Assembly (NCBI GenBank): GCA_016203765.1
Contig: JACQMB010000145.1
Span: 1,124-65,123, forward strand
Length of the DNA stretch: 64,000 bases
Direction of reading: 5' to 3'
Source: Deltaproteobacteria bacterium
GTDB lineage: Bacteria > UBA10199 > SPLOWO2-01-44-7
The notes below the pieces were generated by a model, which saw nothing but the letters and a program-made list of their open reading frames with translations, was not told the DNA's origin and did no database searches. The position numbers were made by a program, and so were the translations under genes. This document shows, one piece after another, positions 8,039 to 53,693 of the stretch; positions within the stretch are counted from its first letter, which is position 1; the number at the start of each line of letters is the position of its first letter.

Positions 8039-8039
8039 C

Positions 8040-10049: not shown

Positions 10050-10052
10050 TAT

Positions 10053-11123: not shown

Positions 11124-11126
11124 TTT

Positions 11127-12928: not shown

Positions 12929-12970
12929 TCCTCGGCTTGAGAAACGCATTGACACAAAGGAGATCGAACT

Positions 12971-14011: not shown

Positions 14012-14015
14012 AGAG

Positions 14016-18361: not shown

Positions 18362-18891
18362 TGGTTATTTGGGTGACAGGATTGTCCGGAGCGGGGAAAA
18401 CGACCCTTTGTCGCGCCCTCTATGACAGATTGAAAACACATATTCCTCAGCTGGTCTGGCTCGACGGGGATGTTGTGCGAAAGGCTTTTGGAAATGATTT
18501 GGGATATTCCGAAGAGGAAAGGCAGACACAATTGAAGCGTTTGCAAAATCTCGCCAAGGTTCTTTCCCATCAGGGGCTGGTTGTTTTGGTTGCCGTTTTG
18601 TATTCTCATCCCGACTTTTTAAAATGGAATCGGCAGAATTTTCCGGAGTATTTTGAAATCTATTTATCCGTGGCTCTCGATGTGTTGCGGCAAAGAGACG
18701 AGAAAGGACTTTACAACGGGTCCGTGAGAAACGTTGTCGGGCTTGATATCCCTTGGCACCCCCCCCAAACCCCGGCTTTGAAAATAAATGTTGATTATAA
18801 AATACCGCCCGAACGATTAGCGCTGGATGTTATCTCTGCTATTCCAAAACTGGCAGAATGCCTGGAAATGCCGAGGAGAAAAAGAATATGA
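18361..18891 (+). CDS. Adenylyl-sulfate (APS) kinase family protein
   Basis: It has the P-loop [11 protein letters not shown] and [21 protein letters not shown] (the LDGD motif). The usual FISP-type segment is replaced by LYSHP. It is translationally coupled to both neighbours (TAATG at the 5' end, ATGA at the 3' end). Confidence 0.75.
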
Positions 18892-20495: not shown

Positions 20496-20503
20496 AAAAT
20501 CGC

Positions 20504-21667
20504 ATGATTCAAGCCAAAGACTTTATTGAACCGGCATTGGAGCGAGGATATCGCTTCTGGTCAGGCGTCCCTTGTTCTTTTTTAACGCCGTTTATTAACT
20601 ATGTCATCCAGAATAAAGAGCTCCGGTATGTGGGGGCCTCGAGCGAAGGGGAAGCCGTCGCGATAGCGATCGGTAGTTACCTGGCCGGCAATAAATCGGT
20701 GGCCATTTGCCAAAACTCCGGTCTAGGGAATATGGTCAATCCGTTGACAAGCCTCAATTATCCTTTTCGGATTCCTTTGCTTTTGATTGTGACGCACCGA
20801 GGAGCCCCTGGCATCCAAGATGAACCCCAGCATGTCTTGATGGGTCAAATTACGGAAAAATTGTTAGAAACGATGCGCATCCCTTACCTCCCCTTTCCTG
20901 AGGAAGGTCGGGATGTGCAAAGGACTCTGGCAGAAGTGGAAAATTATATTGAAAAAGAGAATCTGCCGTTCGCTTTGATTATGAAAAAGGATGCTGTCAC
21001 TTCCTATCCTTTAGAACAAAAAATCACGTTTCACCATTTTCCCGTCTCCCCTGTTGAGGGGAAATTTTATTGGTCCGGTGATTCCCGAATGCGCCGCTTG
21101 GAAGCGATTCAGATAATTAAGGAAACGGCATCGCAACGAGCCCTTCTGATAGCTACAACCGGAAAAACCGGTAGAGAACTGTTCGCATTGGGTCATCAAT
21201 CCAATCAAATTTATATCGTGGGCGGGATGGGATGTGCTGCCGGAATCGGGTTGGGATTGAGTCTCGGACAGCCTTCCAAAAAGGTTTTGGTTTTGGATGG
21301 AGACGGGGCGGTCTTAATGAAGATGGGCACTTTGGCAACGATAGGGCACTATCAGCCAAAAAATTTGATTCATATTGTTTTGGACAATGAGGCTCATGAA
21401 TCAACGGGGGCACAGTTTACGGTGTCGGGGAGCACAGATATCGCCTCTGTCGCCTCTGCCTGCCGCTACCGAAAGCTTTTTCGCTGCGATCAGGCAAAAG
21501 ACTTAAAAAGGTATTTGGATTTGGCCATGCAATCCGAGGGCCCTGTGATGATTCATGTCAAAATCGCCGTCGGATCGGACCCCAAGTTGGGCCGTCCCAC
21601 GTTGACGCCCCATGAAGTCAAAGATCAGTTTGTCCGCCGAATGAATAAAGAAAGGAGCGATTTATGA
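20504..21667 (+). CDS. aepY: Phosphonopyruvate decarboxylase (ThDP-dependent)
   Basis: Motifs are FWSGVPCSFLTPF, GEAVAIAIGSYLAG and the ThDP motif LDGDGAVLMKMGTLATIG...IVLDNEAHESTG. It lies immediately downstream of the PEP mutase. Confidence 0.85.
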   Translation: MIQAKDFIEPALERGYRFWSGVPCSFLTPFINYVIQNKELRYVGASSEGEAVAIAIGSYLAGNKSVAICQNSGLGNMVNPLTSLNYPFRIPLLLIVTHRGAPGIQDEPQHVLMGQITEKLLETMRIPYLPFPEEGRDVQRTLAEVENYIEKENLPFALIMKKDAVTSYPLEQKITFHHFPVSPVEGKFYWSGDSRMRRLEAIQIIKETASQRALLIATTGKTGRELFALGHQSNQIYIVGGMGCAAGIGLGLSLGQPSKKVLVLDGDGAVLMKMGTLATIGHYQPKNLIHIVLDNEAHESTGAQFTVSGSTDIASVASACRYRKLFRCDQAKDLKRYLDLAMQSEGPVMIHVKIAVGSDPKLGRPTLTPHEVKDQFVRRMNKERSDL

Positions 21668-23004
21668 TAACAAAAGACCCCACCTTTTTGAAACGCCAGG
21701 GGGCCAATTTTTTATCTCTGATCAATGATTTAAAAAGAAACCGAAAAGCGGCCGCCCAAGATTTGCAGGTTTCCCTTGAGACAATAGAGAAGATCATCGC
21801 CGGGGAAAGCGATATTCCTCCGGGATTGATTCAGAGAGCTACGGAAGTTTGGCCGGTGAATCGGCGCGATTTCATGATTATGGAAGATGATTGTCCGGAG
21901 GGGGTTTTGGTGATGCGGGGAGAGGCGTCTGAAAAAAGTTCCCGCATTTTTACCCGGGGGGGAGCGGATTATTATGAATATCGGGATACGGCCATGTCGA
22001 AAGTGGCCCCCTTTCGTCCTGAATGGATTTTGGAACTTTGCACGGTGGAGGACAATGACCCGAAAAATTCCAGTTTGCGGTGGAATAACGGCCACTTTAT
22101 GCATCAGTTTACGATGTTTGTGGGCCCGGTCAATTTTTATTATATTGAAGAGAACCAAAAAAAGGTGATGGTCGCAAACACGGGGGATTCCATGTACATT
22201 ACCCCCTTTGTCCCGCACACTTTTGCGACGAGACAAAGGCAAAAAGGTCTCATTCTGGCTTTGACCTATGGAAACAAATTGCTCGGAGACGTCCAACAGG
22301 AAATGTCGAGCCTGGGTGGAGATATTCCGGGCCAATTTCTTTTGGAAACACGAAGCCGAGACGCCTATTTTGCCTCTCTGTTACAATTGCAGATGGCCGC
22401 TTTAAGCCTCTCTGCGGAAGATTTGATTGTGCAGACCGGTTTGCCTGCCGATCGCGTTCACCGGTGGATAAAGGGTGAAGCCTTTCCAACTCCTGAAGAA
22501 TACGGGAGGTTGGCTGATCGTTTGAATGTGAATGTTTATGATTTAATGCCTCCCGACGCTTTTGATCCCGGAGTCATTGTTAGCTATTTGTCGCATTCCA
22601 AGCCTAGGCGGTATTTTAATTGCCAAATCAGAGAACTCGCTTCCATTCGCTATCTCCCTTACTCCAAGGCCCTTCTTCTGGATGTTTTGGAAAAGGCAGA
22701 GACGTTTCCCTTCAAAGTGCCCCTGCATCAATACTGCTATAATTTTGGAGATGTGTCGGTGACGCTCCGATGGGATTGGAAAGGACAGACCAGAGAAGTG
22801 GAAGTGGGTCCCAATGATTCGGTTTATGTGAAACCGTTTGTGCCTCACTCCTTTTCGCCTTGTGCGGCCAAGCCAGCTTCTTTGTTGAGTTTGCGCATCG
22901 GCGGAAAAGGCACTGGAGAGCCCCAAAGAGAACTGTCCCATATTGGAAAAAAGAATATCCAACGCATCTATCAAGAGTATTCACTTTGGTATAAGGAAGA
23001 ATAA
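21664..23004 (+). CDS. mpnS: MpnS/HEPD-family two-cupin non-haem iron oxygenase, residue pattern favouring methylphosphonate synthase
   Basis: It starts with an ATGA overlap and is 446 aa. It has two HTH-like plus cupin repeats (ANTGDSMYITPFVPHTFATR and VGPNDSVYVKPFVPHSFSP). The first cupin carries N141, H144, Q148, F158, I179 and H185. It sits between ppd and an iron ADH. The family call is stronger than the MpnS-versus-HEPD call. Confidence 0.6.
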   Translation: MITKDPTFLKRQGANFLSLINDLKRNRKAAAQDLQVSLETIEKIIAGESDIPPGLIQRATEVWPVNRRDFMIMEDDCPEGVLVMRGEASEKSSRIFTRGGADYYEYRDTAMSKVAPFRPEWILELCTVEDNDPKNSSLRWNNGHFMHQFTMFVGPVNFYYIEENQKKVMVANTGDSMYITPFVPHTFATRQRQKGLILALTYGNKLLGDVQQEMSSLGGDIPGQFLLETRSRDAYFASLLQLQMAALSLSAEDLIVQTGLPADRVHRWIKGEAFPTPEEYGRLADRLNVNVYDLMPPDAFDPGVIVSYLSHSKPRRYFNCQIRELASIRYLPYSKALLLDVLEKAETFPFKVPLHQYCYNFGDVSVTLRWDWKGQTREVEVGPNDSVYVKPFVPHSFSPCAAKPASLLSLRIGGKGTGEPQRELSHIGKKNIQRIYQEYSLWYKEE

Positions 23005-23007
23005 GCG

Positions 23008-23721
23008 ATGAAAGCCATTTTGCTCACCGCGGGACAAGGAAGCCGTTTGCTGCCCTATACGCAATCGATGCCAAAACATTTGCTCCCCCTCGGTTCCACC
23101 ACCATTATTCATCGAACAATCAAAATATTAAGGGATATCGGGATTCAAGACATTGCAATGGTCGTAGGTTATTTAAAGGAAAAATTTTATGAGGCCTTTC
23201 CTAAAGATATTCAATTTTATACCAATGAAGCTTATCCAGTCACCGACCAGGCCGCGAGTTTGGCGAAGGCAGTGGAGAAATTGGAAGATGATTTTTTGGT
23301 CATTGCAGGGGATTTATTTTGTCCCCGAAAGGTTTTTGTTCAGATATTGGAAAAACCCCATCCCATCTGTCTAGCCATTGAAAAAAGGAAAGGGCCATTT
23401 AATGACGTGACGGAAAAGGTCTGCACGAGAGGGGAGTCCATTTTTAAGATCGGGAAATTGAACGTTTTGAACGGAGAAGCCAATGGAGAATTTTTGGGAT
23501 TGACAAAGGTGAGAAAGGAAAAGGCGTCGTTTTTTCTCCGACATCTTAAAGCCGCGCTTTTAGAAAACCCCAGGAGCGCCATCATTCACGTCCATCAAAA
23601 AATAATCGATGCCGGATGTCCTCTTCCTTATATCCACTGCGGAGATTCCTGGTGTGAAATTGATGAGCCCGCCACCTGGAAAAAGGCAAAAGAGATTTTT
23701 CAAAAAACCCCTGATTACTGA
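23008..23721 (+). CDS. Nucleotidyltransferase (sugar-phosphate or phosphonate cytidylyltransferase-like)
   Basis: It has a canonical N-terminal signature: MKAILLTAGQGSRLLPYTQSMPKHLLPLG. Confidence 0.8.
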   Translation: MKAILLTAGQGSRLLPYTQSMPKHLLPLGSTTIIHRTIKILRDIGIQDIAMVVGYLKEKFYEAFPKDIQFYTNEAYPVTDQAASLAKAVEKLEDDFLVIAGDLFCPRKVFVQILEKPHPICLAIEKRKGPFNDVTEKVCTRGESIFKIGKLNVLNGEANGEFLGLTKVRKEKASFFLRHLKAALLENPRSAIIHVHQKIIDAGCPLPYIHCGDSWCEIDEPATWKKAKEIFQKTPDY

Positions 23722-23779
23722 GGAGCATGATTTAGATCATGTTGACTCTTGTTTGCATTAGTTCTAGCGGTGACCGGTT

Positions 23780-25270
23780 ATGGGAAACGTGCCTGCATGC
23801 CGGGTGCCCGTGACCCCTTCATTAGAAGCATTGTTAAATCCGGAACTCTTCAAAAAGGAACCGCTTTTCACCTCTCCTTTAAAACCGCCGCAAAAAGGGG
23901 AGAAGGTTCATCTCCTTTCAGAAGAGGACGTCAATGCCATTCGAAAACTAAGAGGGGCGGTGGTCGATCTCCATCCCGGAATGGGGGGCGTTACCCCGGA
24001 CAAGCTGATTGCCATGATCAAGAGCGGCATCCGATTGACTTCTATCGATTATATGATGACCCGGGGTTGTAATTTCGAATGCACTTGGTGTTTCGCGGGT
24101 TCGGGTCCTTTGCAAAAAGAATATCTTCCCTTTCAAAAACTAGCATCTATTACGCAAGAAGCGGCAAAGTTGGGCGTTACCCTTTTTATTTTAACGGGCG
24201 GAGAACCCCTTGTTTATCGGGACCCGGCGTTAGGGCAGCAGAAAGGCATTGGGGATCATTTTTTTAGAGTCGTGAAGATGATTCGAGATACTTACAGCCA
24301 ACAAGGCCTCTCCGCGAAAATATTGACCTTCGACGATGTCGCATTGATTTCTCCCGAGATTGCAAAGCGGTTTGCGGAATACGAAATAGGTCTCTGTACA
24401 AAAGGCGACACCCTTGCCCCCGAGCTCCAAGATTATAAAGTCAATCAGGTTGGGGCTTTTGACAAGATGCAAAGAGGTTATAAGAATCTTGTGGATGCCG
24501 GTTATGGAAGGGACCCAAGACTAAGAGTCGTCGTGAATTCTGTTTTGGATCACACCACCTTCGATGGCATGTTGGATTTGCATCTATGGGTTATGGAGAA
24601 TGGTTTTGATCATTCCATTGTCCCCGTTCATTATTGCGGCAATGCTGAAAATGAAGATCAAGAGGCAGGGGTTCACTCTCCTCATGTCAAGGTTTTGTAC
24701 GATGTTCTTTCTGAGATTGACAGGAAGCGCTTTGGCATTGAGTGGAAACCCTGGTCCGCCTTTCCTTACAATAAAACTTGCAACCGTAACCGCTCTGGGA
24801 TTCATATCCGGGCCAATGGCGATGTGACGGCTTGTTCCGAATCGCCGGGGCCTGAGCTAACTGGGCGTTACACTTTCGGTAATATTTTCGCCCCTGGTTT
24901 TTCTCTCGAAAAAGTTGTGAAGGATGAAAAGTTAGAAGCCTATCGAGAGGAGTTTAAGAGAGGATATGGGACCTTTGTTTGTTCTCCGGAGGTGTGTGAT
25001 CTGTACGCCCATGACCTTTGTTTGGGCGGGTGCGCCACCCGCTCCGCTTATTCCAAAATAGATATTCAAACGGGCCTCGTCGTTAAAAATGAAAATTTTC
25101 ACAATTACAGTGAGAAGAGAGAAGACCCCTTATGTCCTGCTTGGACTTTGTTGGCTATGCGCCAGGGGATTTTGAGAGAAGGTTTATTAGACAATATCCG
25201 GCATCGGATCATTTCCAGAAGTACAAGACTAAAAGATTTGGAAGGAATGGAACATTCCATTCCTTGTTAG
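23780..25270 (+). CDS. Radical SAM protein with C-terminal SPASM/twitch-like Cys cluster
   Basis: The CxxxCxxC motif is at residues 97-104 (RGCNFECTWCFAG). GGEPL is present. The C-terminal Cys-rich region is CSESPG...CSPEVCDLYAHDLCLGGCATRS. The start is uncertain because about 90 aa precede the cluster. Confidence 0.8.
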   Translation: MGNVPACRVPVTPSLEALLNPELFKKEPLFTSPLKPPQKGEKVHLLSEEDVNAIRKLRGAVVDLHPGMGGVTPDKLIAMIKSGIRLTSIDYMMTRGCNFECTWCFAGSGPLQKEYLPFQKLASITQEAAKLGVTLFILTGGEPLVYRDPALGQQKGIGDHFFRVVKMIRDTYSQQGLSAKILTFDDVALISPEIAKRFAEYEIGLCTKGDTLAPELQDYKVNQVGAFDKMQRGYKNLVDAGYGRDPRLRVVVNSVLDHTTFDGMLDLHLWVMENGFDHSIVPVHYCGNAENEDQEAGVHSPHVKVLYDVLSEIDRKRFGIEWKPWSAFPYNKTCNRNRSGIHIRANGDVTACSESPGPELTGRYTFGNIFAPGFSLEKVVKDEKLEAYREEFKRGYGTFVCSPEVCDLYAHDLCLGGCATRSAYSKIDIQTGLVVKNENFHNYSEKREDPLCPAWTLLAMRQGILREGLLDNIRHRIISRSTRLKDLEGMEHSIPC

Positions 25271-26425
25271 ATGTCCTCCCCTTTCTTTAATCCTGTTCAG
25301 GTTGTTTTTGCAGAAAGGCTTTCGGAAGGCTTGCCTCCTTTGCTGAAAGGAAGACGTGCGTCTGTTTTGACGACGAAAGGAATGAAGCAAAGAGAGGGAT
25401 TCAGACTTTTAGAAGAAGCCCTGGGTGGAAAAAGTTGCGGGGTTTGCACCGATGTTGTCCCGAATCCGGATGTGGAATCCATTCTTTCTTGCACGCGGCA
25501 GATTTCCTCCTTCAAACCGGAGATACTCATTGCCTTGGGAGGCGGAAGTGTTTTGGATGCAGCGAAGGTGGTCGCCATTTTGCTTGCGGCCCCTTTTTCT
25601 AAGACTGCCCTGCAAGAGATTTTGGATGGCAACATTTCTTTGCCCAAGGAAATGGATGCCTTGCCGGTGATTGCTATCCCTACCACGTCGGGGACCGGTT
25701 CGGAGGTAACTTCGTGGAGCGCCGTTTGGAATAAAAAGACAGGCCAGAAATATTCTCTGTCGCATCAGTGTATGTATCCCGAGGCCGCGCTTCTGGTTCC
25801 TGCCCTCACGGCAACCCTTTCTTATGAAAACACGCTGTTTCCCGCTTTGGACGCCCTTTCCCAAAGCATGGAAACCGTTTGGAACAGGAATGCCAATCCC
25901 GTTTCCGATGCGCTGGCCATGCAGGCAATGACCTGTCTGTTTGGAATTTTAAAGAAGGACTTTCGCCGTTCTTTTGAAGCTTTGTCCGTGCGGAAGGAGT
26001 TGCAAAAAGCCAGTCTGTTAACGGGCCTTGCCTTTAGCAACACGGAAACGGCGATCGCCCATTCCCTTTCCTATCCTTTGACAGGCAAAAAGGGGGTTCC
26101 GCACGGTTTGGCTTGTAGTTTTACCCTCCCGGAAATTTTGCGTTTTAATTATCAAGGGGCTCCGGAACGCGTAACCCTTGTTTTAAAAGCCCTAGGTTTT
26201 TCTCATGTTGAAGAAGCGATAGAAGCTTTGTATATGGTTTTTGAAGACTTAGGTATTTGGCAGTATCTTAGAAATTACATTATGGACCCTTGTGAACTGC
26301 AAGAGTTGCAACACCTTTTGGTCTCTGCTCAGCGCGCCCGGAATAATATCGTCCCCTTTTCTCAAGAAGCGGCTGTAGAGTTATTGACCGCCGCTTTTGG
26401 CCGCATCGTGGGCCGAAGATGTTAA
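25271..26425 (+). CDS. Iron-containing (group III) alcohol dehydrogenase, candidate phosphonoacetaldehyde reductase
   Basis: Motifs are ALGGGSVLDAAKVVA, IPTTSGTGSE and a His-rich metal site (AHSLSYPLTGKKGVPHGLA). The functional call comes from its position in the phosphonate sub-cluster. Confidence 0.75.
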   Translation: MSSPFFNPVQVVFAERLSEGLPPLLKGRRASVLTTKGMKQREGFRLLEEALGGKSCGVCTDVVPNPDVESILSCTRQISSFKPEILIALGGGSVLDAAKVVAILLAAPFSKTALQEILDGNISLPKEMDALPVIAIPTTSGTGSEVTSWSAVWNKKTGQKYSLSHQCMYPEAALLVPALTATLSYENTLFPALDALSQSMETVWNRNANPVSDALAMQAMTCLFGILKKDFRRSFEALSVRKELQKASLLTGLAFSNTETAIAHSLSYPLTGKKGVPHGLACSFTLPEILRFNYQGAPERVTLVLKALGFSHVEEAIEALYMVFEDLGIWQYLRNYIMDPCELQELQHLLVSAQRARNNIVPFSQEAAVELLTAAFGRIVGRRC

Positions 26426-27189
26426 AAGATCATCTCCGACATCGCAGAATAGTGTTCGGCGCTTGGACCTCTCTGGCCCATCCCCAAATTACCGAGATGT
26501 TCGCCTCCGTCATGAAGCCCGATTTCATCGGGATCGACATGGAGCATTCCACCATCAGCCAGGGGGAAGCGCAAAGGATTATCGCCGCCGGCCAGGCCTG
26601 CGGGGTTCCCGTTTTGCCGCGGCTGGCCTCCCATGATATCGAAGCGATGCGCCGCCTCTGCGATTCGGGGGCAGACGGCCTGATCGTTCCCATGGTCAAT
26701 ACGCCCGAGGAACTGGAACGGGTGGTGAAGGGGTGCAAATATCCCCCCGTGGGCCAAAGGGGCTACGGGGTGGCGCGGGCCCAGGGGCACGGTGCCCGTT
26801 TTGATGAATATATTTCCGCGTGGAATGCAAAATCGGTTCTGATCATTCAGATTGAATCCATTCAAGCCGTGGAAAATATCGACCGGCTGTTGGACAATGA
26901 GCAGGTGGATGGAGTGATGATCGGCCCCTACGACATCTCCGGCTCGCTGGGAATTCCGGGAAAGCTGATCGACCCCAAAGTTTTGCAGGCCGGCGAGCGG
27001 GTCCTTGCGGCGTGCGCGCGCCGGGGAAAGGCTTGCGGCACGCAAATTACGGAACTCCCCGACGAGAAAAAAATTAAGGAGGCCATCGATCGCGGTTATA
27101 CCGTCATTGTCCTGGCCTCCGATGTCTTTTTGATGTGGCGATGGTCGGAACAAATGAGAGGGTTGATCGCTCGTGTACGGCAGTCTTGA
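26419..27189 (+). CDS. HpcH/HpaI family class II (pyruvate-type) aldolase
   Basis: Motifs are FGAWTSLAHPQITEMFA, DFIGIDMEHS, LIIQIESIQAVENID and MIGPYDISGSLG. Confidence 0.85.
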   Translation: MLKDHLRHRRIVFGAWTSLAHPQITEMFASVMKPDFIGIDMEHSTISQGEAQRIIAAGQACGVPVLPRLASHDIEAMRRLCDSGADGLIVPMVNTPEELERVVKGCKYPPVGQRGYGVARAQGHGARFDEYISAWNAKSVLIIQIESIQAVENIDRLLDNEQVDGVMIGPYDISGSLGIPGKLIDPKVLQAGERVLAACARRGKACGTQITELPDEKKIKEAIDRGYTVIVLASDVFLMWRWSEQMRGLIARVRQS

Positions 27190-27778
27190 AACCGTTGTCC
27201 AAAGGGCAAAGGCACTGATTTTTGATTTTGACGGGACGCTGGTCGATTCCAACCCCATCAAATTGTACGCCTTCGAAAAATGTTTTTCGGATTTTGTGGA
27301 AAAACAAAGCGAGATCATGGACTATTGCCTGGCGCATCATCATGTCTCGCGCTTTGATAAATTTCGGCATGTTTTTGAAACAATCCTGCACCGACCCTAT
27401 ACGCCGGAGTGGGAGCGGAAAATGCTGAGGCGCTATGCCGAGGAGACGACGGAGCAGGTGATCGGCGCCCCCGAAATTCCAGGGGCCGTCTCCTTTGTCA
27501 AGCGTTGGAAAAAGAAGAAGGAGGTCGTTTTGCTCTCCACGACGCCGGATGAGATTTTGAAACATATTTTGGCCAGGCGGGAGATGGAACATCTCTTTTC
27601 CGTCATTCGCGGAGCCCCAGTTCATAAGGCCTCGTGGATGGACGGGTTTATGCGGGGAAGGGGTTTGGAGAAGAGGGAGGTGGTGTTCTTCGGCGATTCC
27701 GACGAAGACGCCGAGTCGGCAAAAACGGCCGGGGTGATTTTTGTGAAGGTGGAAGGAGATCAAACGTTTCGATCATGA
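27173..27778 (+). CDS. HAD-superfamily hydrolase (phosphatase)
   Basis: GTG start. It has motif I LIFDFDGTLVDS and motif IV FFGDSDEDAESA. Confidence 0.8.
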   Translation: MYGSLETVVQRAKALIFDFDGTLVDSNPIKLYAFEKCFSDFVEKQSEIMDYCLAHHHVSRFDKFRHVFETILHRPYTPEWERKMLRRYAEETTEQVIGAPEIPGAVSFVKRWKKKKEVVLLSTTPDEILKHILARREMEHLFSVIRGAPVHKASWMDGFMRGRGLEKREVVFFGDSDEDAESAKTAGVIFVKVEGDQTFRS

Positions 27779-28539
27779 TAAAGAACCAAACCATGGATCA
27801 AAGATTTTCTTTGCGGGGCAAGGCGGCGGTGGTCGTCGGCGGGGCGGGTTATCTTTGTTCCGCTTTATCGAGGGCGATGTTGGAATCGGAAATGAAGGTC
27901 GCTATTTTGGATGTTGTGAAGGAACCGCCAGCCGATTTGTCTGGAGAGGTTTTCTTTTTGCAGTGCGACGCCGCTCAAAAAGAGGCATTGTTGAAAGGCC
28001 GCGAGGCCGTTCTACAAAAATTCGGCCGTGTGGACGTTTTGTTAAACGGCGCCACCTGCAACGCCCCAACCCCCTTTTTGGAAATCAGCGAGCCGGAGAT
28101 TGACCGGATCTTGCGAGCCAATGTCTACGCCACCCTCTACGGCTGCCAGGTGTTTGGAGAGGCGATGGTTAAACAACGCAAGGGAAGCATTATCAATTTT
28201 GCCTCTGCCTCCAGCACAACGCCCCTCTCCAGGGCCTTTGTCTACTCCGCCGCCAAGGCGGGGGTTCTGAATCTGACCAAAAACCTGGCCAGGGAATGGG
28301 CCCCCTATCAGGTGCGCGTCAACGCCCTTCAACCCGGTTTTTTCCCGACCGAGTGGAGTCGGAAGCATTTTATTGACGAGGAACGCCAGGCGAAAATTTT
28401 GGGTCATACTCCGATGAGGCGCTTTGGCAAACCGGAGGAATTGACCGGGGCCGTTCTTTGGCTGGCCTCCGAAGCCGCCTCTTTCGTGACCGGCTCCGTT
28501 GTAACCATAGACGGCGGTTTTACCGCCATGACGATTTGA
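27775..28539 (+). CDS. Short-chain dehydrogenase/reductase (SDR)
   Basis: The ATG at 27775 overlaps the upstream stop (ATGA). Motifs are GKAAVVVGGAGYLCSAL, YSAAKAG and PGFFPT. The ORF-track start at 27634 is an over-extension. Confidence 0.85.
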   Translation: MIKNQTMDQRFSLRGKAAVVVGGAGYLCSALSRAMLESEMKVAILDVVKEPPADLSGEVFFLQCDAAQKEALLKGREAVLQKFGRVDVLLNGATCNAPTPFLEISEPEIDRILRANVYATLYGCQVFGEAMVKQRKGSIINFASASSTTPLSRAFVYSAAKAGVLNLTKNLAREWAPYQVRVNALQPGFFPTEWSRKHFIDEERQAKILGHTPMRRFGKPEELTGAVLWLASEAASFVTGSVVTIDGGFTAMTI

Positions 28540-28541
28540 AT

Positions 28542-29285
28542 ATGACGAAGAGTGTTGCCATCACCGGAGGCAATCGCGGCATCGGAAAGGGAATCGCCGA
28601 TTATTTTTTGGCCAAGGGGCATCGGGTGGCTGTTTGCTCCCGCTCCCCAAGAGAAAAAGGTTTGGCGAAGGCCATCCTGCACCTGCAAATAGACGTTCGT
28701 AAAAGGGAAGACCAAAAACTGTTTTTGGCGCATGTTCAAGAATCCTTTGGGGGGTTGGATGTCGTTGTCCATTGCGCCGGCGTTTCCCGGTGGAGGCCGC
28801 TCGAAGCGGCGGACGAGACTTTCGTGGAAGAGGTGATAGAGACGAATTTGCTGGGGACGTTGTGGGGTTGCCAGGCGGCCGCGCAGGTTTTGGGGCCGGG
28901 GGGGGCCATTGTCAATGTCTCCAGCCTGGCGGGCAAGCGCGGCTCCGCCAATAACAGCGTCTATTGCGCCTCCAAGTTTGCCGTCAACGGACTCACGCAG
29001 GCCTTGGCCAAGGAGCTTGGGCCGCGGGGGGTGCGCGTGAATGCGGTTTGTCCGGTTTATGTGGAAACCGATTATATTCTTCAATCCCTGAGTGAAAAAA
29101 ACTCTCCGGCGGGGGGAGGATCGGTGCGGAGTTATCTGGAAAATTTTGCCAAAACGCAGACGGCCCTGGGGCGTCTCCCCAGAGTGGACGAGATTGCCAA
29201 GACCGTTTATTTTTTTGCCAGCGACGAGGCCTCCGCCGTTACCGGACAATGTCTCAACGTGGATTGCGGAACCTTTCCCCAATAA
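28542..29285 (+). CDS. Short-chain dehydrogenase/reductase (FabG-like SDR)
   Basis: ATG at 28542. Motifs are VAITGGNRGIGKGIA, NVSSLAG, YCASKFA and NAVCPVYVETD. Confidence 0.85.
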   Translation: MTKSVAITGGNRGIGKGIADYFLAKGHRVAVCSRSPREKGLAKAILHLQIDVRKREDQKLFLAHVQESFGGLDVVVHCAGVSRWRPLEAADETFVEEVIETNLLGTLWGCQAAAQVLGPGGAIVNVSSLAGKRGSANNSVYCASKFAVNGLTQALAKELGPRGVRVNAVCPVYVETDYILQSLSEKNSPAGGGSVRSYLENFAKTQTALGRLPRVDEIAKTVYFFASDEASAVTGQCLNVDCGTFPQ

Positions 29286-30041
29286 ATGACCACAAAAATT
29301 GCCGCCGTGATTCCCGCCCGCATGGCCTCGCAGCGCCTTCCGGGCAAGCCGTTATTGGAAATCGAGGGACTGCCGATGATTGAGCACGTTCGGCGGCGCG
29401 TCCTTTTGGCCAAGGGGTTTTCCCGCGTGGTTGTCGCCACCTGTGATCCGATCATTGCCGAGACGGTTGAAGATTACGGGGGAGAGGTTTTAATGACCAG
29501 CCCCGCGCATCAGGTGGCCACCGAGCGGATCATCGAGGCGATACAACATTTGGACTGCACGCATGTGATCAATGTCCAAGGCGATGAAGTTTTGGTCTTG
29601 CCCTCCGACCTGGAAAAAATGACTTCGGCCATCCAGGCCCATCCGGAAAAGCCGGTTTGGAATGCGGTGGCGCCCCTTGAGAGCGAAGAGACGCTCAAGG
29701 ACCAATCGATCGTCAAGTGCCGGCTTTCCCCTTCCGGCCGGATTCTCTCCTTTGTACGCGAGGGATCTTCCGAGACGGGGCCGCTCTATTGGGTGATCGG
29801 CCTTTTGGCTTATCGTCGCGGCATTTTAGAGGAGTTTGCGCGGTGGAAGCGGAGCGCCTTGGAAGCGAAGGCCTCGATTGAGCAGATGCGCTTTTTGGAA
29901 AACGACGTGCCGATCGCCTCCGTTCTTTTTGCCAAGGCCTATCCCGGCATTAATGAAGAGCGGGAGGTAGGCCCGGTGAAGGATTATTTGCACGAGGACA
30001 GGCTTCAGAGATCCGTTTTGCGAAAGGTCCTTGCCTCATGA
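29286..30041 (+). CDS. kdsB: KdsB-like cytidylyltransferase (CMP-ulosonic acid synthetase family)
   Basis: Motifs are IAAVIPARMASQRLPGKPLLEIEGLPMIEHV, VVVATCD and INVQGDEVLV. The family call is solid, but the substrate need not be Kdo. Confidence 0.7.
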   Translation: MTTKIAAVIPARMASQRLPGKPLLEIEGLPMIEHVRRRVLLAKGFSRVVVATCDPIIAETVEDYGGEVLMTSPAHQVATERIIEAIQHLDCTHVINVQGDEVLVLPSDLEKMTSAIQAHPEKPVWNAVAPLESEETLKDQSIVKCRLSPSGRILSFVREGSSETGPLYWVIGLLAYRRGILEEFARWKRSALEAKASIEQMRFLENDVPIASVLFAKAYPGINEEREVGPVKDYLHEDRLQRSVLRKVLAS

Positions 30042-30982
30042 GAACCGTTTACGTCGCTTTGTCCAAGTTTTGCGAACAGGACGACGGCCCGCGCCGCGTT
30101 TTGACGGAGGCCGGACTCGATGTTTTGGAAAATAAAACGGGGAGGCGGCTTCGCGAAGAGGAGATGTACGCTTTGTTAAAAGACGTGGACGGCGTGCTGG
30201 CGGCCGTGGAGCCTTATCGGGCCGGCTTGCTGGAAAAATTGCCGAGGTTGAAATGTATCAGCCGCTGCGGCGTGGGAACCGATAACATTGATTTGGAAGC
30301 GGCCGAAAAATACGGCAAGGCGGTTTTCAACACGCCGGATGAAATCGTGGAGCCGGTGGCGCAGATGACCGTGGCGATGATTTTGAACTTGGCCCGCCGT
30401 TTAAATCGGTACGCCTCCGATTTTTGGAAAGGGGAGTGGGTCAAACGGAGCGGTTTTCTCCTTTCGGAGTGGACGGCGGGTATTATAGGCTTTGGACGCG
30501 TCGGCAAAAGGGTCGCCCATTATCTAAAACCCTTCGGGACACGCATTTTGGTTTATGATCCCGCGGTGTCTCCGGCCCAATTTCCTGAATTTTTGTTTTG
30601 CCGGTCGCTGGACGAACTTTTGAGTCAATCCGACATCGTCACCTTGCACGCGGGCCGGCCGACGCGGGAGGGAGTTTTAATGAACCTGGAGTCCTTTAGG
30701 AAAATGAAACCGGGGAGTTATTTTGTCAACACGTCGCGGGGATACCTGGTTGACGAAACGGCGCTCCATGAAATGTTGGTCTGCGGCCATTTGGCCGGCG
30801 CGGCCCTCGATGTTTTTGCCCAGGAACCCTACCAAGGGTCTTTGAACTCTCTCCTACAGGTGATAGGCACTCCCCATGCGGCGACTCTGACCCGGGCCTC
30901 CCGGTCGGCTATGGAGCTGAAGGCCGCGCAAAACCTGGCCTGTTTTTTCTCAACATGTACGAAAACCACTGGAAGCATTTGA
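30038..30982 (+). CDS. D-isomer-specific 2-hydroxyacid dehydrogenase (phosphoglycerate dehydrogenase-like)
   Basis: It starts with an ATGA overlap. It has the NAD loop GIIGFGRVGKRVAHYL, AALDVF and the catalytic His region GTPHAAT. Confidence 0.85.
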   Translation: MRTVYVALSKFCEQDDGPRRVLTEAGLDVLENKTGRRLREEEMYALLKDVDGVLAAVEPYRAGLLEKLPRLKCISRCGVGTDNIDLEAAEKYGKAVFNTPDEIVEPVAQMTVAMILNLARRLNRYASDFWKGEWVKRSGFLLSEWTAGIIGFGRVGKRVAHYLKPFGTRILVYDPAVSPAQFPEFLFCRSLDELLSQSDIVTLHAGRPTREGVLMNLESFRKMKPGSYFVNTSRGYLVDETALHEMLVCGHLAGAALDVFAQEPYQGSLNSLLQVIGTPHAATLTRASRSAMELKAAQNLACFFSTCTKTTGSI

Positions 30983-32148
30983 ACCAGCTGACCTTGGCCG
31001 CCATTGTTGTGGCCGGCGGGAGGGTGGGCTCTGATTTTATCCAAAGCCTGTTTGACGGTCATCCCGAAGTTTTGACATTTGACGGGGTTTTATCCTTTGA
31101 GGATTTTTATCAGAATGCCATCAGTCTTTGGGGGACGGCCATCCAGTTTCAAGTCCATCGCCGTTTAGAAAGGGCAGCCCCTTCCGATTTTTTTTATGAA
31201 TTTGCATGGAAACATTTATACGCCTTCAAATCCAATTACGACAACCTGGAAGGCAAACACCGATTGGGGATGTCCCGCGATGAAGCCAACCAAGTGGACA
31301 TTGAGGCCTTTGTTCGATACGGCGTTCAACTTTTAAGCGGGAGAGAATGGACAAGCCGCAACGCCTTTTTGGCTCTTTACGGAGCCTTTGGGCTGGCGAG
31401 AGGGGAGGATTTGTCAAAGAAGAAAGTGTTATTACATCATATCCATGATATGGAAAAATTGCCTCCGCTCTTGGAGGCTTTTCCGAACATAAAGGTGATC
31501 GCTGCCACCCGTGATCCGCGGGCCGGTTATCTTTCCACCATGGAGCATACCTATCGGTATTCCAAAGAAAAGGTGACGCCGAATATGCATGCCTATGTCT
31601 ATGCCCGCATTCTGCGTGAGTCGGATCCTTTGCAAGGACGGCCTGGTATGGATGTTCGCGTCAATTTATTGGAGCGCCTGCATCAAAGCCCGGAAACCGT
31701 GCTTAACAATATGTGTCAATGGTTGGGCATTCCGTTTCATCCCGTCTTGCTTTGCTCCACCTGGGGAGGAAAGGAGTGGTGGGGAGATGCCCTCTCGGAT
31801 GAGATCCGGAAGACATTTAATCCGGAAATGTATGCGGCTTCACAAAAAAAATGGGAACGAAATCTTTCTTTTCAGGATCGATTGCTCTTGGAGGTGTTGA
31901 TGCGCAAGAAACTCAGGCGGTATGGGTATGTCATCAAGTATCGGGCATCCCTTTGGCATTTATTGGCTTTTCCGTTAATTTTTTGGCCCAACCGGATAGA
32001 AAGAAAATTGCTTAGAGAAAACTTAAAGTCGTTTGGCGCGATTCGCTTGCTTCGTTGGATTCAAGGATTGGGCCGTCGTTATCGTTGTATGTTGCAGAGA
32101 TGGATTGCCGTTCTGCGTTCAGGAAAGGAATCCTTTGAGTTTTTTTAG
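30955..32148 (+). CDS. Sulfotransferase-family protein
   Basis: It has a 5'-PSB-like loop (IVVAGGRVGSDFIQSLFDGHPEV) and a 3'-PB-like segment (VIAATRDPRAGYLS). It overlaps the upstream gene by 28 nt. Confidence 0.65.
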   Translation: MYENHWKHLNQLTLAAIVVAGGRVGSDFIQSLFDGHPEVLTFDGVLSFEDFYQNAISLWGTAIQFQVHRRLERAAPSDFFYEFAWKHLYAFKSNYDNLEGKHRLGMSRDEANQVDIEAFVRYGVQLLSGREWTSRNAFLALYGAFGLARGEDLSKKKVLLHHIHDMEKLPPLLEAFPNIKVIAATRDPRAGYLSTMEHTYRYSKEKVTPNMHAYVYARILRESDPLQGRPGMDVRVNLLERLHQSPETVLNNMCQWLGIPFHPVLLCSTWGGKEWWGDALSDEIRKTFNPEMYAASQKKWERNLSFQDRLLLEVLMRKKLRRYGYVIKYRASLWHLLAFPLIFWPNRIERKLLRENLKSFGAIRLLRWIQGLGRRYRCMLQRWIAVLRSGKESFEFF

Positions 32149-33193
32149 ATTTAAAACGCACGTCGAAACAGTCCGCCGCTTGCGCAACGACAAGCGGGAC
32201 CGCCACGACCGGTTCCGCCTGGATGCCAATGAGCGGCTGGAAGGCCTGCCGGCCTCTCTGTGGAAGAAATTCAAGCGGGATTTGAGGCAGGAGGACGTTT
32301 TGTGCTATCCCGAGACGGAAAAATTTTATGAAAAACTTGCCGGCCATCTGGGCGTGGGGGTGGAAAATCTGGTTCTGACCACCGGCGTGGACGGGGCCAT
32401 CAAAAATTGTTTTGAACTGTTCGTCAAACCGGGGGACACGGTTGTTTATCCGGACCCCACTTTCGGGATGGTCGATGTTTACGCGCGGTTATTTCAGGCG
32501 CAAGCGAAAAAGATTCCTTTCGGCGGGGCGGTGGCCATCGAGGACCTGATCAAAGTCGTCGATCAGGGCGTGACCTTTGTTTTTCTCCCCAACCCCAACA
32601 GTCCCACCGGGCACTATTTTCAAAATTCCGACCTGGAAAAACTGATGGCCGCCTGTCGTGAGAAAAAAACAGGCCTGTTGATCGACGAGGCCTATTGGGG
32701 CTTTTCCCCGGGGACGGCCGTCGATATCGCTTTGCGATTTGAGAATGTGGCCGTCGCCCGCTCTTTTTCCAAGGTCTTCGGTCTGGCGGGCTTGCGGATC
32801 GGCTATCTGATTGCCCCCGCTCCCCTGGCCGCGCTTTTGTACAAATTCAGACCGATGTATGAGGTCAATCAACCGGCCTTGAAGCTGGCCTCGCTGGTTT
32901 TGGATCAATTTGACGAGGTCTTTGCGTACGGCAGGCGGACGCGGGAGGGGCGCAAATATTTTGTTGATTCGATGAGACAAAGGGGTTTTAATGCCCGCGA
33001 GACGGAGGCGAATTTCGTCTATGTCGATTTTAAAGAGAAGAGGGACGCTCTGCTGACCCATTTAAAAGAAAAGGGAGTCTTGATCAGGGGTTCTTATAAT
33101 CTGGAGGCCTTTGGAGATTGGGTTCGATTGACCGTCGGTCCGGCGGCAATCATGAAAAAACTGATTGGGCTCATTGATGAGGTCTTATGCTAA
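32135..33193 (+). CDS. Class I/II PLP aminotransferase (HisC-like)
   Basis: I propose a TTG start at 32135, preceded by AGGAAAGGAA. Motifs are RLDANERLEGLP and the PLP lysine region ARSFSKVFGLAGLRIGYLIA. The ORF-track start at 32033 lies inside the upstream gene. Confidence 0.8.
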   Translation: MSFFRFKTHVETVRRLRNDKRDRHDRFRLDANERLEGLPASLWKKFKRDLRQEDVLCYPETEKFYEKLAGHLGVGVENLVLTTGVDGAIKNCFELFVKPGDTVVYPDPTFGMVDVYARLFQAQAKKIPFGGAVAIEDLIKVVDQGVTFVFLPNPNSPTGHYFQNSDLEKLMAACREKKTGLLIDEAYWGFSPGTAVDIALRFENVAVARSFSKVFGLAGLRIGYLIAPAPLAALLYKFRPMYEVNQPALKLASLVLDQFDEVFAYGRRTREGRKYFVDSMRQRGFNARETEANFVYVDFKEKRDALLTHLKEKGVLIRGSYNLEAFGDWVRLTVGPAAIMKKLIGLIDEVLC

Positions 33194-33915
33194 GGACGAA
33201 CCGCCCCTGGGGCAATCCCTCTTCGCTCTCTTTTTTTAAAGAGCATCGGAACTCCGTCGAAGAGGCCTATCCCTCGGAACTCCATTTTTTGGAAAAGGTG
33301 GTTCCCCAGGTTCAATCGGTTTTGGACGTCGGCTGTGCCGCGGGGGGATTGTATCCGGTTTTCAAAAAGTACAACCCCCGTCTTCACTACGAAGGGGCGG
33401 ATGTCATTCCCGAAATGATCGAGAACGCCCGAAAGAAATTTCCTCGGCTCTCTTTTCACCTGGTCGGCGGCGCGGCGCTCCCCTTTGAAGACAACAGCAG
33501 GGAGATGGTCTTCAGCTCCGGTCTTTTTCACCTGATCGATCATTACGAAGCCTATCTGCAGGATTTGTACCGGGTGGCCCGGCGTTTTTTGCTGGTCGAT
33601 TTTCGCGTTCATTCGGAGGCGACCCGTTGTTCGGAAATGTGGGTTGCCTTCGGGGGGGTGGAAAGAAAAGAGGAGTTGAAGGTTCCCTATTATGTCCTGA
33701 ACATGGGCGACTATCTGCGGATGTTGACGCGGTTAAAACCGAGCCCCGGAAAAATCGATATCTACGGTTATCCGGGCAAGGTCTCCGCCAACACAAAAGA
33801 AAATATTCCCGATGTCCTTTTTCTCTTTGCCAACATTGAAAAGGGGGCGGGCCGGACGGCGTGGCCCGAAATTTCTTTGCATATCACCCCAAAACCTCAA
33901 GGGGGGGTTGGATGA
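33187..33915 (+). CDS. Class I SAM-dependent methyltransferase
   Basis: Motif I is VLDVGCAAGGLYPVF, and the fold is typical downstream (MVFSSGLFHLID). Confidence 0.8.
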   Translation: MLRTNRPWGNPSSLSFFKEHRNSVEEAYPSELHFLEKVVPQVQSVLDVGCAAGGLYPVFKKYNPRLHYEGADVIPEMIENARKKFPRLSFHLVGGAALPFEDNSREMVFSSGLFHLIDHYEAYLQDLYRVARRFLLVDFRVHSEATRCSEMWVAFGGVERKEELKVPYYVLNMGDYLRMLTRLKPSPGKIDIYGYPGKVSANTKENIPDVLFLFANIEKGAGRTAWPEISLHITPKPQGGVG

Positions 33916-34742
33916 AACACTATTCGGGAGGTCCCTGGTTCCGGCATTTGGAGGTGGATGTCTCCGGCGTCTGCAACCGGAGCTGTATTTTTTGTCCCCG
34001 GTACGATTCCAAAAACTATCCGAACGTAAAGGAATTTTTTCCGCTCGATCTTTGGGAAAAGGTCTCCGGGGAATTGGGAGGGTACGGCTACAACCACCGG
34101 ATCGCGTTTTCCGGAACGGGAGAGCCCCTGTTTCACAAACAGATCGAACGACTCATTGCCGTGGCCCGGGCCGAGATGCCTTCGGTTCAGCTTGATTTGA
34201 TCACCAACGGGGATATTCTGAAGGCCAAAAAAATGCGGTCGCTGATCGACGCGGGGTTGAGCCGGATTTTGATTTCTCTTTATGACGGGCCTTTTCAACA
34301 TGAAAAATTCGACGCCATGGCGGCCGGCGTCGGCCTGACGAGGGAGCAAGTCGTCTGCCGCGTCCGCTATCTGGCTAAAGAAGAAAATTTCGGTTTGGAA
34401 CTTTCCAACCGGGGGGGGATCGCCGACAACAAAGAGGCGGGGATGGACAAGCCCCCGGAGCCCCGCCGCCGGACCTGTTATTATCCTTTTTATTTTTCCT
34501 CGGTCGATTTCCGGGGGAATGTTCTGTTGTGTCCCCATGACTGGCCGAAACACCTGATCATCGGCAATTTGCGTCAACAGACCTTCGCCGGAATTTGGAA
34601 CTCGGAGACGATGAAAAAAGTGCGGCAAAAAATGTTCGCGGTCGACATCGATTTTCTCCCCTGTTCCACCTGCACGGTGAACGGACAGATCGACGGGAAG
34701 CAATATTTTGAGCAGTGGGCCCAACACTATGCCGGAAGGTAG
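33912..34742 (+). CDS. Radical SAM protein with C-terminal auxiliary Cys motif
   Basis: The ATG at 33912 overlaps the upstream stop (ATGA). Motifs are VSGVCNRSCIFCP (CxxxCxxC), FSGTGEPL and the C-terminal CYYPF...LLCPHDW...CSTC. Confidence 0.85.
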   Translation: MKHYSGGPWFRHLEVDVSGVCNRSCIFCPRYDSKNYPNVKEFFPLDLWEKVSGELGGYGYNHRIAFSGTGEPLFHKQIERLIAVARAEMPSVQLDLITNGDILKAKKMRSLIDAGLSRILISLYDGPFQHEKFDAMAAGVGLTREQVVCRVRYLAKEENFGLELSNRGGIADNKEAGMDKPPEPRRRTCYYPFYFSSVDFRGNVLLCPHDWPKHLIIGNLRQQTFAGIWNSETMKKVRQKMFAVDIDFLPCSTCTVNGQIDGKQYFEQWAQHYAGR

Positions 34743-51254: not shown

Positions 51255-51258
51255 GATA

Positions 51259-53689: not shown

Positions 53690-53693
53690 GTCT

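Follow-up and report, generated by a model that had tools for sequence, protein, structure and literature searches.

A 64-kb stretch of DNA from a metagenome-assembled Deltaproteobacteria genome (GenBank assembly GCA_016203765.1, contig JACQMB010000145.1, positions 1,124 to 65,123), referred to at its full length as the window, carries on its plus strand one long gene array from about position 23 to 42619, and the region as a whole is a surface-glycan locus. Within this array, a module of ten genes (26419–34742) with an HpcH/HpaI-type pyruvate aldolase and a KdsB-like cytidylyltransferase had been described in a first-pass annotation as one self-contained pathway to a cytidine monophosphate (CMP)-activated keto-acid sugar. 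All ten open reading frames are present on the plus strand, and each has a family match among the Pfam or NCBIfam profiles; these matches confirmed the families named earlier. Chance reading frames were ruled out because the E-values range from 1e-11 to 1e-53 and the synteny is conserved in other genomes. The genes abut or overlap by 1 to 28 nucleotides, the exceptions being a 2-nucleotide gap between the two short-chain dehydrogenase/reductase (SDR) genes and a 31-nucleotide gap before the aminotransferase gene. The idea of one self-contained pathway did not hold, since only the first six genes recur elsewhere as one cassette, further partners lie outside the module and the last four genes travel separately. 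Judged by this recurrence, the ten genes are a composite of a conserved cassette, formed by the first six (26419–30982) plus partners at 14930–18361, and of lineage-specific tailoring genes (30955–34742).

The six conserved genes begin with an HpcH/HpaI class II (metal-dependent) pyruvate aldolase (26419–27189; PF03328, 102 bits against a cutoff of 25), followed by a HAD-IA phosphatase with a profile match and a DFDGT motif (27173–27778), SDR1 (27775–28539; SDR match of 161 bits) and SDR2 (28542–29285; 181 bits), both given with coordinates after start-codon correction, a KdsB-like cytidylyltransferase of the CTP_transf_3 family (29286–30041; 124 bits) and a D-2-hydroxyacid dehydrogenase (2-Hacid_dh, 30038–30982) that is closest to PGDH and glyoxylate reductase. 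The partners upstream on the same strand encode a 500-amino-acid protein without Pfam family that has a GT-B fold in its predicted structure (14930–16432), a GFO/IDH/MocA oxidoreductase (GFO, 16429–17430) and a Methyltransf_23 methyltransferase (MT23, 17405–18361), the latter two assigned by Pfam.

Homologues of the aldolase with at least 50% identity are abundant; when a single genome of each GTDB species was scanned with a pattern, 157 species proved to have such a gene. For comparison, 83 non-duplicate loci were set against all window proteins, and the remaining open reading frames were clustered and read together with their position and strand. The recurrent order in these 83 loci is (GT-B protein), GFO, MT23, (SIS_2, transaldolase), HpcH aldolase, HAD, SDR1, SDR2, KdsB-like and 2-Hacid_dh. 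Three lineages of archaea and about 15 phyla of bacteria contain the cassette, among them Omnitrophota, Planctomycetes, Chloroflexi, Elusimicrobia, Bacteroidetes, Gamma- and Alphaproteobacteria, Deltaproteobacteria and Nitrospirae, as well as Leptospira noguchii, Prochlorococcus, Uhrbacteria of the candidate phyla radiation (CPR), Methanoregula, Methanomicrobiaceae and Nitrososphaerales. Leptospira noguchii serovar Panama CZ214, Aquirufa sp. 1-SAACH-A3 and Methanoregula (orthologue on CP112999.1) are carriers in culture. On these data of gene order, so strict an arrangement in 83 loci across bacteria and archaea cannot be coincidence. A neighbourhood search for the aldolase and the KdsB-like gene, as recommended in the first-pass annotation, thereby found the pair conserved in the same order in very distant lineages.

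A subset of 55 loci has flanks of 6 kb or more in both directions. In 49 of them the KdsB-like gene accompanies the aldolase, which makes these two the constant pair; nine of the loci compared lack the SDR pair. Within the subset, the SDR pair is present in 44 loci, the GT-B protein and GFO are each found in 42, MT23 in 41, a HAD gene directly after the aldolase in 38 and 2-Hacid_dh directly after the KdsB-like gene in 34; the median position of the GFO partner is −3.5 kb from the aldolase. Two classes were distinguished, a main class of 39 loci and a second class of 13 loci that carry kdsA. For 32 to 38 of the 39 main-class loci, the genes immediately before the aldolase encode a phosphoheptose-isomerase-like SIS_2 protein and a transaldolase, and the HAD gene comes after it. 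This transaldolase is of the true transaldolase type, closest to the enzymes of Thermoplasma and Thermotoga, and has a Phe in its SPFVGR-type motif. Within 10 kb, kdsA was found in none of the 39 main-class loci and neuB in one, and a tblastn search of the 64-kb window with KdsA gave no match (best E = 0.5). Glycan genes neighbour the aldolase in every locus examined, and no catabolic operon context was seen. The slot that SIS_2 and transaldolase occupy in the relatives is filled in the window by a block of phosphonate genes.

The aldolase is the most conserved gene of the cassette. Residues H43, R68, Q144, E146 and D172 are invariant in 84 orthologues and align with the catalytic residues of HpaI and YfaU, so that by these conserved residues the protein is predicted to be a working class II pyruvate aldolase. 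Matches to the solved structures of HpaI, GarL and RhmA/YfaU reach 98–107 bits, and scores against the HpaI, GarL and RhmA equivalog models lie far below the cutoffs (129 versus 369, 115 versus 393, 112 versus 407 and 113 versus 441). These profile scores place it outside the catabolic groups of HpaI, GarL and RhmA. The window HAD protein matches HAD-IA and phosphoglycolate-phosphatase models only and does not qualify as a KdsC-type (HAD-IIIA) phosphatase. The nearest families of SDR1 are sugar-acid dehydrogenases of the D-mannonate, gluconate-5 and KduD types (NF006132, 234 bits; NF006070, 170 bits; KduD, 147 bits). The KdsB-like protein passes one NCBIfam KdsB subfamily model (NF003952, 198 against a cutoff of 193) and stays below the equivalog cutoffs of three others (NF009905, 208 versus 255; NF003948, 157 versus 281; TIGR00466, 120 versus 155). 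Its best solved-structure match is KpsU of E. coli (123.5 bits, 34% identity), the Yersinia KdsB is 40% identical, and at an E-value limit of 1e-6 its relatives of solved structure are all cytidylyltransferases for 3-deoxy-D-manno-octulosonic acid (Kdo).

The 500-amino-acid partner has no Pfam, NCBIfam or PDB match by sequence or sequence profile, and its family is annotated as hypothetical everywhere. Its AlphaFold2 model (pLDDT 93, pTM 0.92) has an N-terminal helical extension and two Rossmann-like domains with similarity to solved GT-B enzymes. A Foldseek search gave 265 PDB matches at E ≤ 0.001; GT-B glycosyltransferases and UDP-GlcNAc 2-epimerases came first, with a target-normalised TM score of about 0.59, and neither sialyl- nor Kdo-transferases stood out. 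Conserved positions in the family are E231-G232, E236, H257 and R363-x-H365-P366; the E-G and H-P motifs resemble those of sialyltransferases, a similarity that played no part in the assignment. One relative is fused to a GT2 domain. From its modelled fold, the protein is a probable transferase for the cassette product.

Taken together, 26419–30982 and 14930–18361 are a copy of a widespread, uncharacterised cassette. Its product may be a 2-keto-3-deoxy sugar acid of the Kdo type that is activated with CMP and destined for a surface glycan, an interpretation to which somewhat less than an even chance was given. The Mg2+-dependent HpcH aldolase would reversibly add pyruvate to an aldose or aldose phosphate (Kdo-aldolase chemistry, EC 4.1.2.23) and would form the C3–C4 bond that is normally made from phosphoenolpyruvate (PEP) by KdsA or NeuB. 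The HAD phosphatase would then take off the terminal phosphate, the SDR pair would re-tailor a secondary alcohol via a keto intermediate, the KdsB-like enzyme would join the ulosonic acid to CMP and the GT-B protein would transfer the sugar onto the glycan. As a guess, the GFO oxidoreductase, the methyltransferase and the 2-hydroxyacid dehydrogenase would tailor the sugar or supply precursors. That most loci have no KdsA or NeuB nearby supports such a pyruvate-aldolase route to a CMP-ulosonic acid, and from the gene content it is likely that the aldolase replaces KdsA. The arrangement of SIS_2/transaldolase, aldolase and HAD mirrors the logic of KdsD, KdsA and KdsC, namely isomerase, condensing enzyme and phosphatase. 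The pair of phosphoheptose-isomerase-like protein and transaldolase suggests heptose-7-phosphate as acceptor and a C10 product. SIS_2 and HAD were also considered as part of an ADP-heptose pathway; this was rejected, as an HldE-like kinase/adenylyltransferase occurs in only one locus.

Several observations weigh against this proposal. SIS_2 and transaldolase are missing from the window and also from L001 and L008, the relatives closest to it, whose slot is empty; because these genes are absent, no acceptor supply is encoded in the cassette of the window. The roles assigned to GFO, methyltransferase and 2-hydroxyacid dehydrogenase are guesses. Across the two classes the KdsB-like proteins are 37–42% identical to each other versus 32–40% to canonical KdsB, and since the cross-class identity is no closer than this, a specificity other than Kdo is not demonstrated for the KdsB-like enzyme. 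Furthermore, a genuine kdsA (NF003543, 328 bits versus a cutoff of 242; TIGR01362, 316 versus 314) lies together with a KpsF-type CBS pair immediately upstream of the same aldolase in all 13 second-class loci. Their gene set consists of aldolase, two SDRs, KdsB-like and GT-B genes without GFO, MT23, SIS_2, transaldolase, HAD and 2-Hacid_dh, and some of them also hold a true kdsC (for example L082; TIGR01670, 149 bits against a cutoff of 107) and a NanM-like O-methyltransferase. Carriers of this class include Leptospira noguchii, Legionella, Methylobacter, Flavobacteria and Prochlorococcus. Because kdsA adjoins, the aldolase would not be needed as a synthase in these loci, and because a genuine KdsA stands beside the same aldolase, the enzyme may remodel the sugar instead of building it. 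The two classes have an identical aldolase pocket, and only four conservative positions distinguish their aldolases.

For the kdsA-carrying loci, the proposal is that this reversible aldolase would take what KdsA makes as its substrate and might, for instance, reset C4 by a retro-aldol and an aldol step. A reversible Kdo-type aldolase could in this way serve both classes, as a net synthase without KdsA and as a remodeller where KdsA is present. The evidence from the kdsA class points to a C8 product. The earlier suggestion that the HpcH aldolase is coupled to the KdsB-like enzyme in place of a KdsA- or NeuB-type synthase stood in part, as the pair is conserved and no such synthase lies in the module, whereas 13 loci do carry kdsA. 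A canonical kdsA or kdsC as the explanation of the KdsB-like gene, which had been named as the observation that would speak against a new pathway, applies in part to this subclass; the 39 main-class loci have no kdsA within 10 kb, and the 64-kb window has none.

The block that fills the slot before the aldolase (18858–26425, plus strand, delimited by Pfam and NCBIfam profiles) encodes a PepM::nucleotidyltransferase fusion (18858–20495; TIGR02320, 371 bits, above cutoff), the phosphonopyruvate decarboxylase Ppd (20504–21667; TIGR03297, 423 bits, above cutoff), a 446-amino-acid cupin protein assigned as methylphosphonate synthase MPnS (21664–23004), a second nucleotidyltransferase of the nucleoside triphosphate (NTP) transferase type (23008–23721) and a 496-amino-acid radical S-adenosylmethionine (SAM)/SPASM protein (23780–25270), the last two by profile match, and an iron-dependent alcohol dehydrogenase (Fe-ADH) as phosphonoacetaldehyde reductase (25271–26425; phosphonate-type Fe-ADH model, 325 bits). 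The MPnS assignment is based on 444.5 bits to the Nitrosopumilus maritimus MPnS structure 6B9S versus 277.6 to the hydroxyethylphosphonate dioxygenase (HEPD) structure 6B9R. The alignment keeps the iron ligands H148, Q152 and H190 (2-His-1-Gln) and shows Phe162 and Ile184 where HEPD has Tyr and Gly; these are reportedly the positions that separate MPnS from HEPD (Born et al. 2017), and the numbering agrees with the alignment. PepM carries at residue 120 the EDK(X)5NS motif, which has been used as an authenticity test for this enzyme (10.1101/2020.11.04.368217). By these profile and residue matches, the block is a complete methylphosphonate pathway of PepM, Ppd, Fe-ADH reductase and genuine MPnS. 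Because the pathway is complete, the route of phosphonoacetaldehyde, reduction by the Fe-ADH and then MPnS, is encoded by the block itself. The Fe-ADH was also considered as a KdnB-like Kdo-8 oxidase, a role that was rejected in view of its best match to the phosphonate-type Fe-ADH and its position beside MPnS, which needs its product. The pathway is found here in a Deltaproteobacteria genome and inside a surface-glycan locus; MPnS has been reported as rare in marine genomes, occurring in below 1% and mostly in SAR11 (10.1101/2020.11.04.368217).

Besides the window, PepM was found in three of 84 related loci (L072, L086 and L090), and the other 81 are without phosphonate genes. L090 is a close relative that has the same block and the same junction of Fe-ADH and aldolase; the 496-amino-acid radical SAM/SPASM protein is absent from its otherwise equivalent block. 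L072 (12241–19840; from an Omnitrophota genome) and, at the same position, L086 (from a Planctomycetia genome), both metagenome-assembled, contain a different phosphonate block between HAD and SDR1, with Glyphos_transf, an HTH-nucleotidyltransferase, a 242-amino-acid HppE-like HTH-cupin protein, PepM::NTP transferase, Fe-ADH and a sulfatase-family protein; no Ppd was detected in this block. Because the cassette is kept without phosphonate genes in most loci and the block fills the SIS_2/transaldolase slot, the block is, by comparison of loci, an insertion that is separate from the cassette.

The last four genes of the module encode a sulfotransferase (30955–32148), a HisC-like class I/II aminotransferase (32180–33193; TIGR01141, 231 bits, below cutoff), a SAM methyltransferase (33187–33915; profile match) and a radical SAM/SPASM protein with a CX3CX2C motif (33912–34742), all on the plus strand; by their distribution, they are lineage-specific tailoring genes. 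The sulfotransferase is a weak match to Sulfotransfer_3 (PF13469, 32 bits) but has a GGRVGS loop and an RDPR motif, which we take to be the motifs that bind 3'-phosphoadenosine-5'-phosphosulfate (PAPS). In the comparison of 83 loci it recurs only in L005 and L045, each with genes for PAPS synthesis. In the window, it is paired by its predicted function with the adenosine-5'-phosphosulfate (APS) kinase encoded at 18361–18891 on the plus strand (NF004041, 135 bits against a cutoff of 127), which would supply PAPS.

The aminotransferase starts at about 32180, later than its open reading frame, and the called protein (P0201) has 337 amino acids. Relatives of it sit with radical SAM/SPASM, an approximately 250-amino-acid methyltransferase, 2-Hacid_dh and HAD genes in loci without the aldolase (for example L087 and L089 from Leptospira levettii) and adjoin NeuA-type CTP_transf_3 genes. 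A homologue of the methyltransferase follows the aminotransferase in L088 (352 bits), and homologues of the radical SAM/SPASM protein occur in L060, L087 and L089. In L087, the protein P0306 (8001–9809) is a fusion of a NeuA/LegF-like CTP_transf_3 domain to a HisC-like aminotransferase, flanked by radical SAM/SPASM, 2-Hacid_dh and HAD genes. Its cytidylyltransferase domain is 33% identical to the NeuA-like protein of the window versus 25% over 61 residues to the KdsB-like protein. This fusion suggests that a CMP-nonulosonic acid is aminated or otherwise tailored in a reaction not yet described, and the trio of aminotransferase, methyltransferase and radical SAM protein probably serves the nonulosonic acid portion of the glycan. 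A role for the aminotransferase in the aldolase pathway was rejected as the principal reading, its fusion partner in P0306 being NeuA-type and not KdsB-like. The glycan of the window would be decorated by sulfation through APS kinase and sulfotransferase, by the products of the trio and by methylphosphonate from the inserted block.

Upstream in the same array, a complete set for a legionaminic-acid-type nonulosonic acid pathway occupies 23–14933. It includes ATP-grasp and HisF/HisH-like amidotransferase genes, a GFO oxidoreductase, an SDR, a PtmE-like CBS-nucleotidyltransferase, DegT, PglD and a LegB-like dehydratase, together with a NeuA/LegF-type CTP_transf_3 gene (5498–6232, plus strand) and neuB (6986–8038, plus strand), to which a NeuA-type synthetase adjoins. 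The same region contains a 672-amino-acid protein (8031–10049) without Pfam or NCBIfam match. Eleven of the 55 loci have a counterpart of it, located some 8 kb upstream of the aldolase. At the corresponding position, L087 has a 679-amino-acid protein with Glyphos_transf and Epimerase_2 matches and no match to any window protein; these profile matches would suggest a TagF-like transferase for this slot. Downstream of the module follow Wzy, a YfhO-like protein, a carbamoyltransferase, a UDP-GlcNAc 2-epimerase and a UDP-sugar dehydrogenase. A third CTP_transf_3 gene of the window lies on the minus strand (53694–54464, within 48539–56821), accompanied by an Ldh_2-family dehydrogenase (52661–53821), a TAL_FSA aldolase (51999–52664), a FabG-like SDR, a B12-radical SAM protein and methyltransferases. 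By its gene content, this minus-strand set may be another module for a CMP-activated acid, built around a different aldolase.

The chief rival to a synthetic role of the aldolase, itself regarded as unlikely, is that the ulosonic acid is made elsewhere and that HpcH acts on this 2-keto acid before CMP activation. The acid could come from KdsA/KdsC, from NeuB or from an oxidative route in which GFO and the 2-hydroxyacid dehydrogenase convert an aldose phosphate via the aldonate phosphate to a 2-keto-aldonate phosphate that is then dephosphorylated by HAD, and HpcH could epimerise C4 by retro-aldol and aldol steps, use C3 of the acid as nucleophile or extend the oxidised chain. The class-specific gene sets, KdsA and CBS on one side and GFO, MT23, SIS_2, transaldolase, HAD and 2-Hacid_dh on the other, are mutually exclusive, and aldolase, SDR pair, KdsB-like and GT-B genes are common to both, which looks like alternative supply modules with shared downstream steps. 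The identical aldolase pocket in both classes fits as well, and so does the window, where NeuB (6986–8038) is present and the cassette is without SIS_2 and transaldolase, but this NeuB has its own NeuA-type synthetase adjoining. No HpcH-family enzyme is known in such a role, the oxidative route is hypothetical with 2-Hacid_dh missing from nine of the 39 main-class loci, and the supply routes would give different acids (3-hydroxy versus 3-deoxy), a poor fit to an invariant aldolase pocket. A rather improbable alternative is that the aldolase, with or without the SDRs, makes no long-chain ulosonic acid and instead a short C4 to C6 4-hydroxy-2-oxo or dihydroxy acid from pyruvate and a small aldehyde, which would become an acyl, ether or ketal substituent on another glycan sugar or would itself be the CMP-activated unit. 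The characterised HpcH-family matches (HpaI, GarL and RhmA/YfaU) make C6–C7 acids, and the locus is rich in tailoring enzymes and adjoins the legionaminic acid pathway; the N-acyl groups of legionaminic-type sugars are often hydroxy acids. In L087, moreover, the aminotransferase trio is accompanied by 2-Hacid_dh and HAD in a locus that has no aldolase. Against this alternative, the cassette has no conserved acyl-activating enzyme or acyl carrier, and the constant partner of the aldolase is of the KdsB type, with solved-structure relatives (E-value limit of 1e-6) that are all Kdo cytidylyltransferases. Most loci also have genes for sugar-phosphate supply and a phosphatase beside the aldolase.

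Two further explanations received very little weight. It is extremely unlikely that the aldolase joins pyruvate or oxaloacetate to phosphonoacetaldehyde and that the aminotransferase then yields an amino-phosphonate as in rhizocticin biosynthesis, which the first-pass annotation had offered as its alternative. As that annotation had noted, the aldolase gene starts within the stop region of the reductase gene (start at 26419, stop at 26425, an overlap of 7 nucleotides), and this junction is kept in L090; phosphonate genes also lie inside the cassette in L072 and L086, and the block of the window fills the slot of the acceptor-supply genes of its relatives. Yet 81 of the 84 related loci have no PepM and still contain the same aldolase with its invariant pocket, the block is a complete methylphosphonate pathway that would consume phosphonoacetaldehyde by reduction, and the insertion in L072 and L086 is at a different place, after HAD. 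The aminotransferase, which had been read as a rhizocticin-like amination step, belongs to a family that travels with NeuA-type synthetases and not with PepM, and RhiG presumably represents a different aldolase family of the HMGL/DmpG type. Very unlikely, too, is the ordinary explanation that the KdsB-like protein is an extra CMP-Kdo synthetase, like kpsU in the capsule loci of E. coli, and that aldolase and dehydrogenases are unrelated neighbours. The KdsB subfamily cutoff that the protein passes, an identity to canonical KdsB as high as to the cassette proteins of the other class, and the kdsA and partly kdsC genes of the second class are in line with it. Against it stand the strict order and adjacency in 83 loci of bacteria and archaea, and the carriers, which include archaea, Chloroflexi and CPR bacteria and which in the main class never have kdsA within 10 kb. 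Synthesis of a CMP-activated, Kdo-type acid by the aldolase cassette is kept as the preferred interpretation.

Compared with known systems, the proposed pathway shares with the Kdo pathway (KdsD, KdsA, KdsC and KdsB) an isomerase in most relatives, the condensation of C3 and Cn units to a 2-keto-3-deoxy acid, a phosphatase and CMP transfer by an enzyme of the KdsB type, the cytidylyltransferase being clearly homologous to KdsB. It differs in that the condensing enzyme is a metal-dependent pyruvate aldolase (PF03328) and not the PEP-dependent DAHP_synth_1 type, that the phosphatase belongs to HAD-IA and not to the KdsC group, that the cassette has two SDRs, a GFO oxidoreductase, a methyltransferase and a 2-hydroxyacid dehydrogenase as extra enzymes and that it occurs in archaea. 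Some cassette lineages are single-membraned, and to our knowledge archaea, Chloroflexi and CPR bacteria have no lipopolysaccharide (LPS) and no Kdo pathway. By its predicted gene products, the cassette in the window departs from the Kdo pathway in two defining features, having no KdsA and no KdsC-type phosphatase. With the pathways for nonulosonic acids (NeuB/NeuA and LegI/LegF), the cassette would have in common a CMP-activated 2-keto-3-deoxy acid sugar for a surface glycan, but it has no NeuB and its cytidylyltransferase is of the KdsB and not the NeuA type. The catabolic HpcH-family aldolases have the same fold and the same catalytic His, Arg, Glu and Asp, whereas the cassette aldolase falls below all of their equivalog cutoffs and lies in glycan loci instead of operons for the degradation of aromatic compounds or sugar acids. 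The pathway of rhizocticin and plumbemycin to 2-amino-5-phosphono-3-pentenoic acid (APPA) likewise has an aldolase (RhiG) beside PepM and Ppd and an aminotransferase in the same operon; it differs from the cassette, which in nearly all related loci has no phosphonate genes, and from the block, which holds MPnS. All four enzymes of the methylphosphonate pathway of Nitrosopumilus maritimus (PepM, Ppd, Pdh and MPnS) have counterparts in the block, with the same MPnS iron ligands and F162/I184, but here PepM is fused to a nucleotidyltransferase and the block lies inside an aldolase cassette of a Deltaproteobacteria genome.

The chemistry proposed for the HpcH enzyme resembles Kdo aldolase activity, which is likewise pyruvate-dependent and reversible; that activity has been described as catabolic, and its link to the HpcH gene family is proposed here only. 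The reversible cleavage of Kdo to pyruvate and D-arabinose has been known since 1966 according to a citation of Ghalambor and Heath in PMC12199768, and Kdo aldolase was listed among the orphan activities, which have no sequence, in a 2007 survey (PMC1940265). In line with the first-pass annotation, which knew of no ulosonic acid pathway organised in this way, the searched literature contained no paper that describes the cassette or links HpcH-family aldolases with CMP-sugar synthesis. C10 keto acids that are linked to CMP and as yet unassigned are reported for Magnetospirillum in the SugarBase preprint, which gives no matching genes.

The cassette is widespread, conserved across domains and undescribed in the literature searched, and from its gene content it is probably a form of CMP-ulosonic acid biosynthesis. 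A broader proposal, tentative and put well short of an even chance, is that it represents a PEP-independent route to CMP-ulosonic acids in bacteria and archaea, including lineages without LPS, that the HpcH aldolase is its condensing enzyme and the long-missing family of the Kdo-aldolase type, that in most carriers a transaldolase and a phosphoheptose-isomerase-like protein supply the acceptor, so that the product may be a ten-carbon 3-deoxy-ulosonic acid and not Kdo, and that in some lineages the glycan is esterified with methylphosphonate. The PEP-dependent synthases of Kdo and nonulosonic acids are drug targets and serve as genome markers for these sugars. If a second, pyruvate-aldolase route exists, genome surveys would miss a whole class of acid sugars in carriers such as Omnitrophota, Planctomycetes, Chloroflexi, CPR bacteria, methanogens and ammonia-oxidising archaea. 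The cassette would also provide a candidate gene family for the orphan Kdo aldolase activity and enzymes for the synthesis of unusual ulosonic acids. Finally, the insertion of phosphonate genes in the cassette at more than one position would be a clue to the type of glycan that carries methylphosphonate, a precursor of aerobically formed methane.

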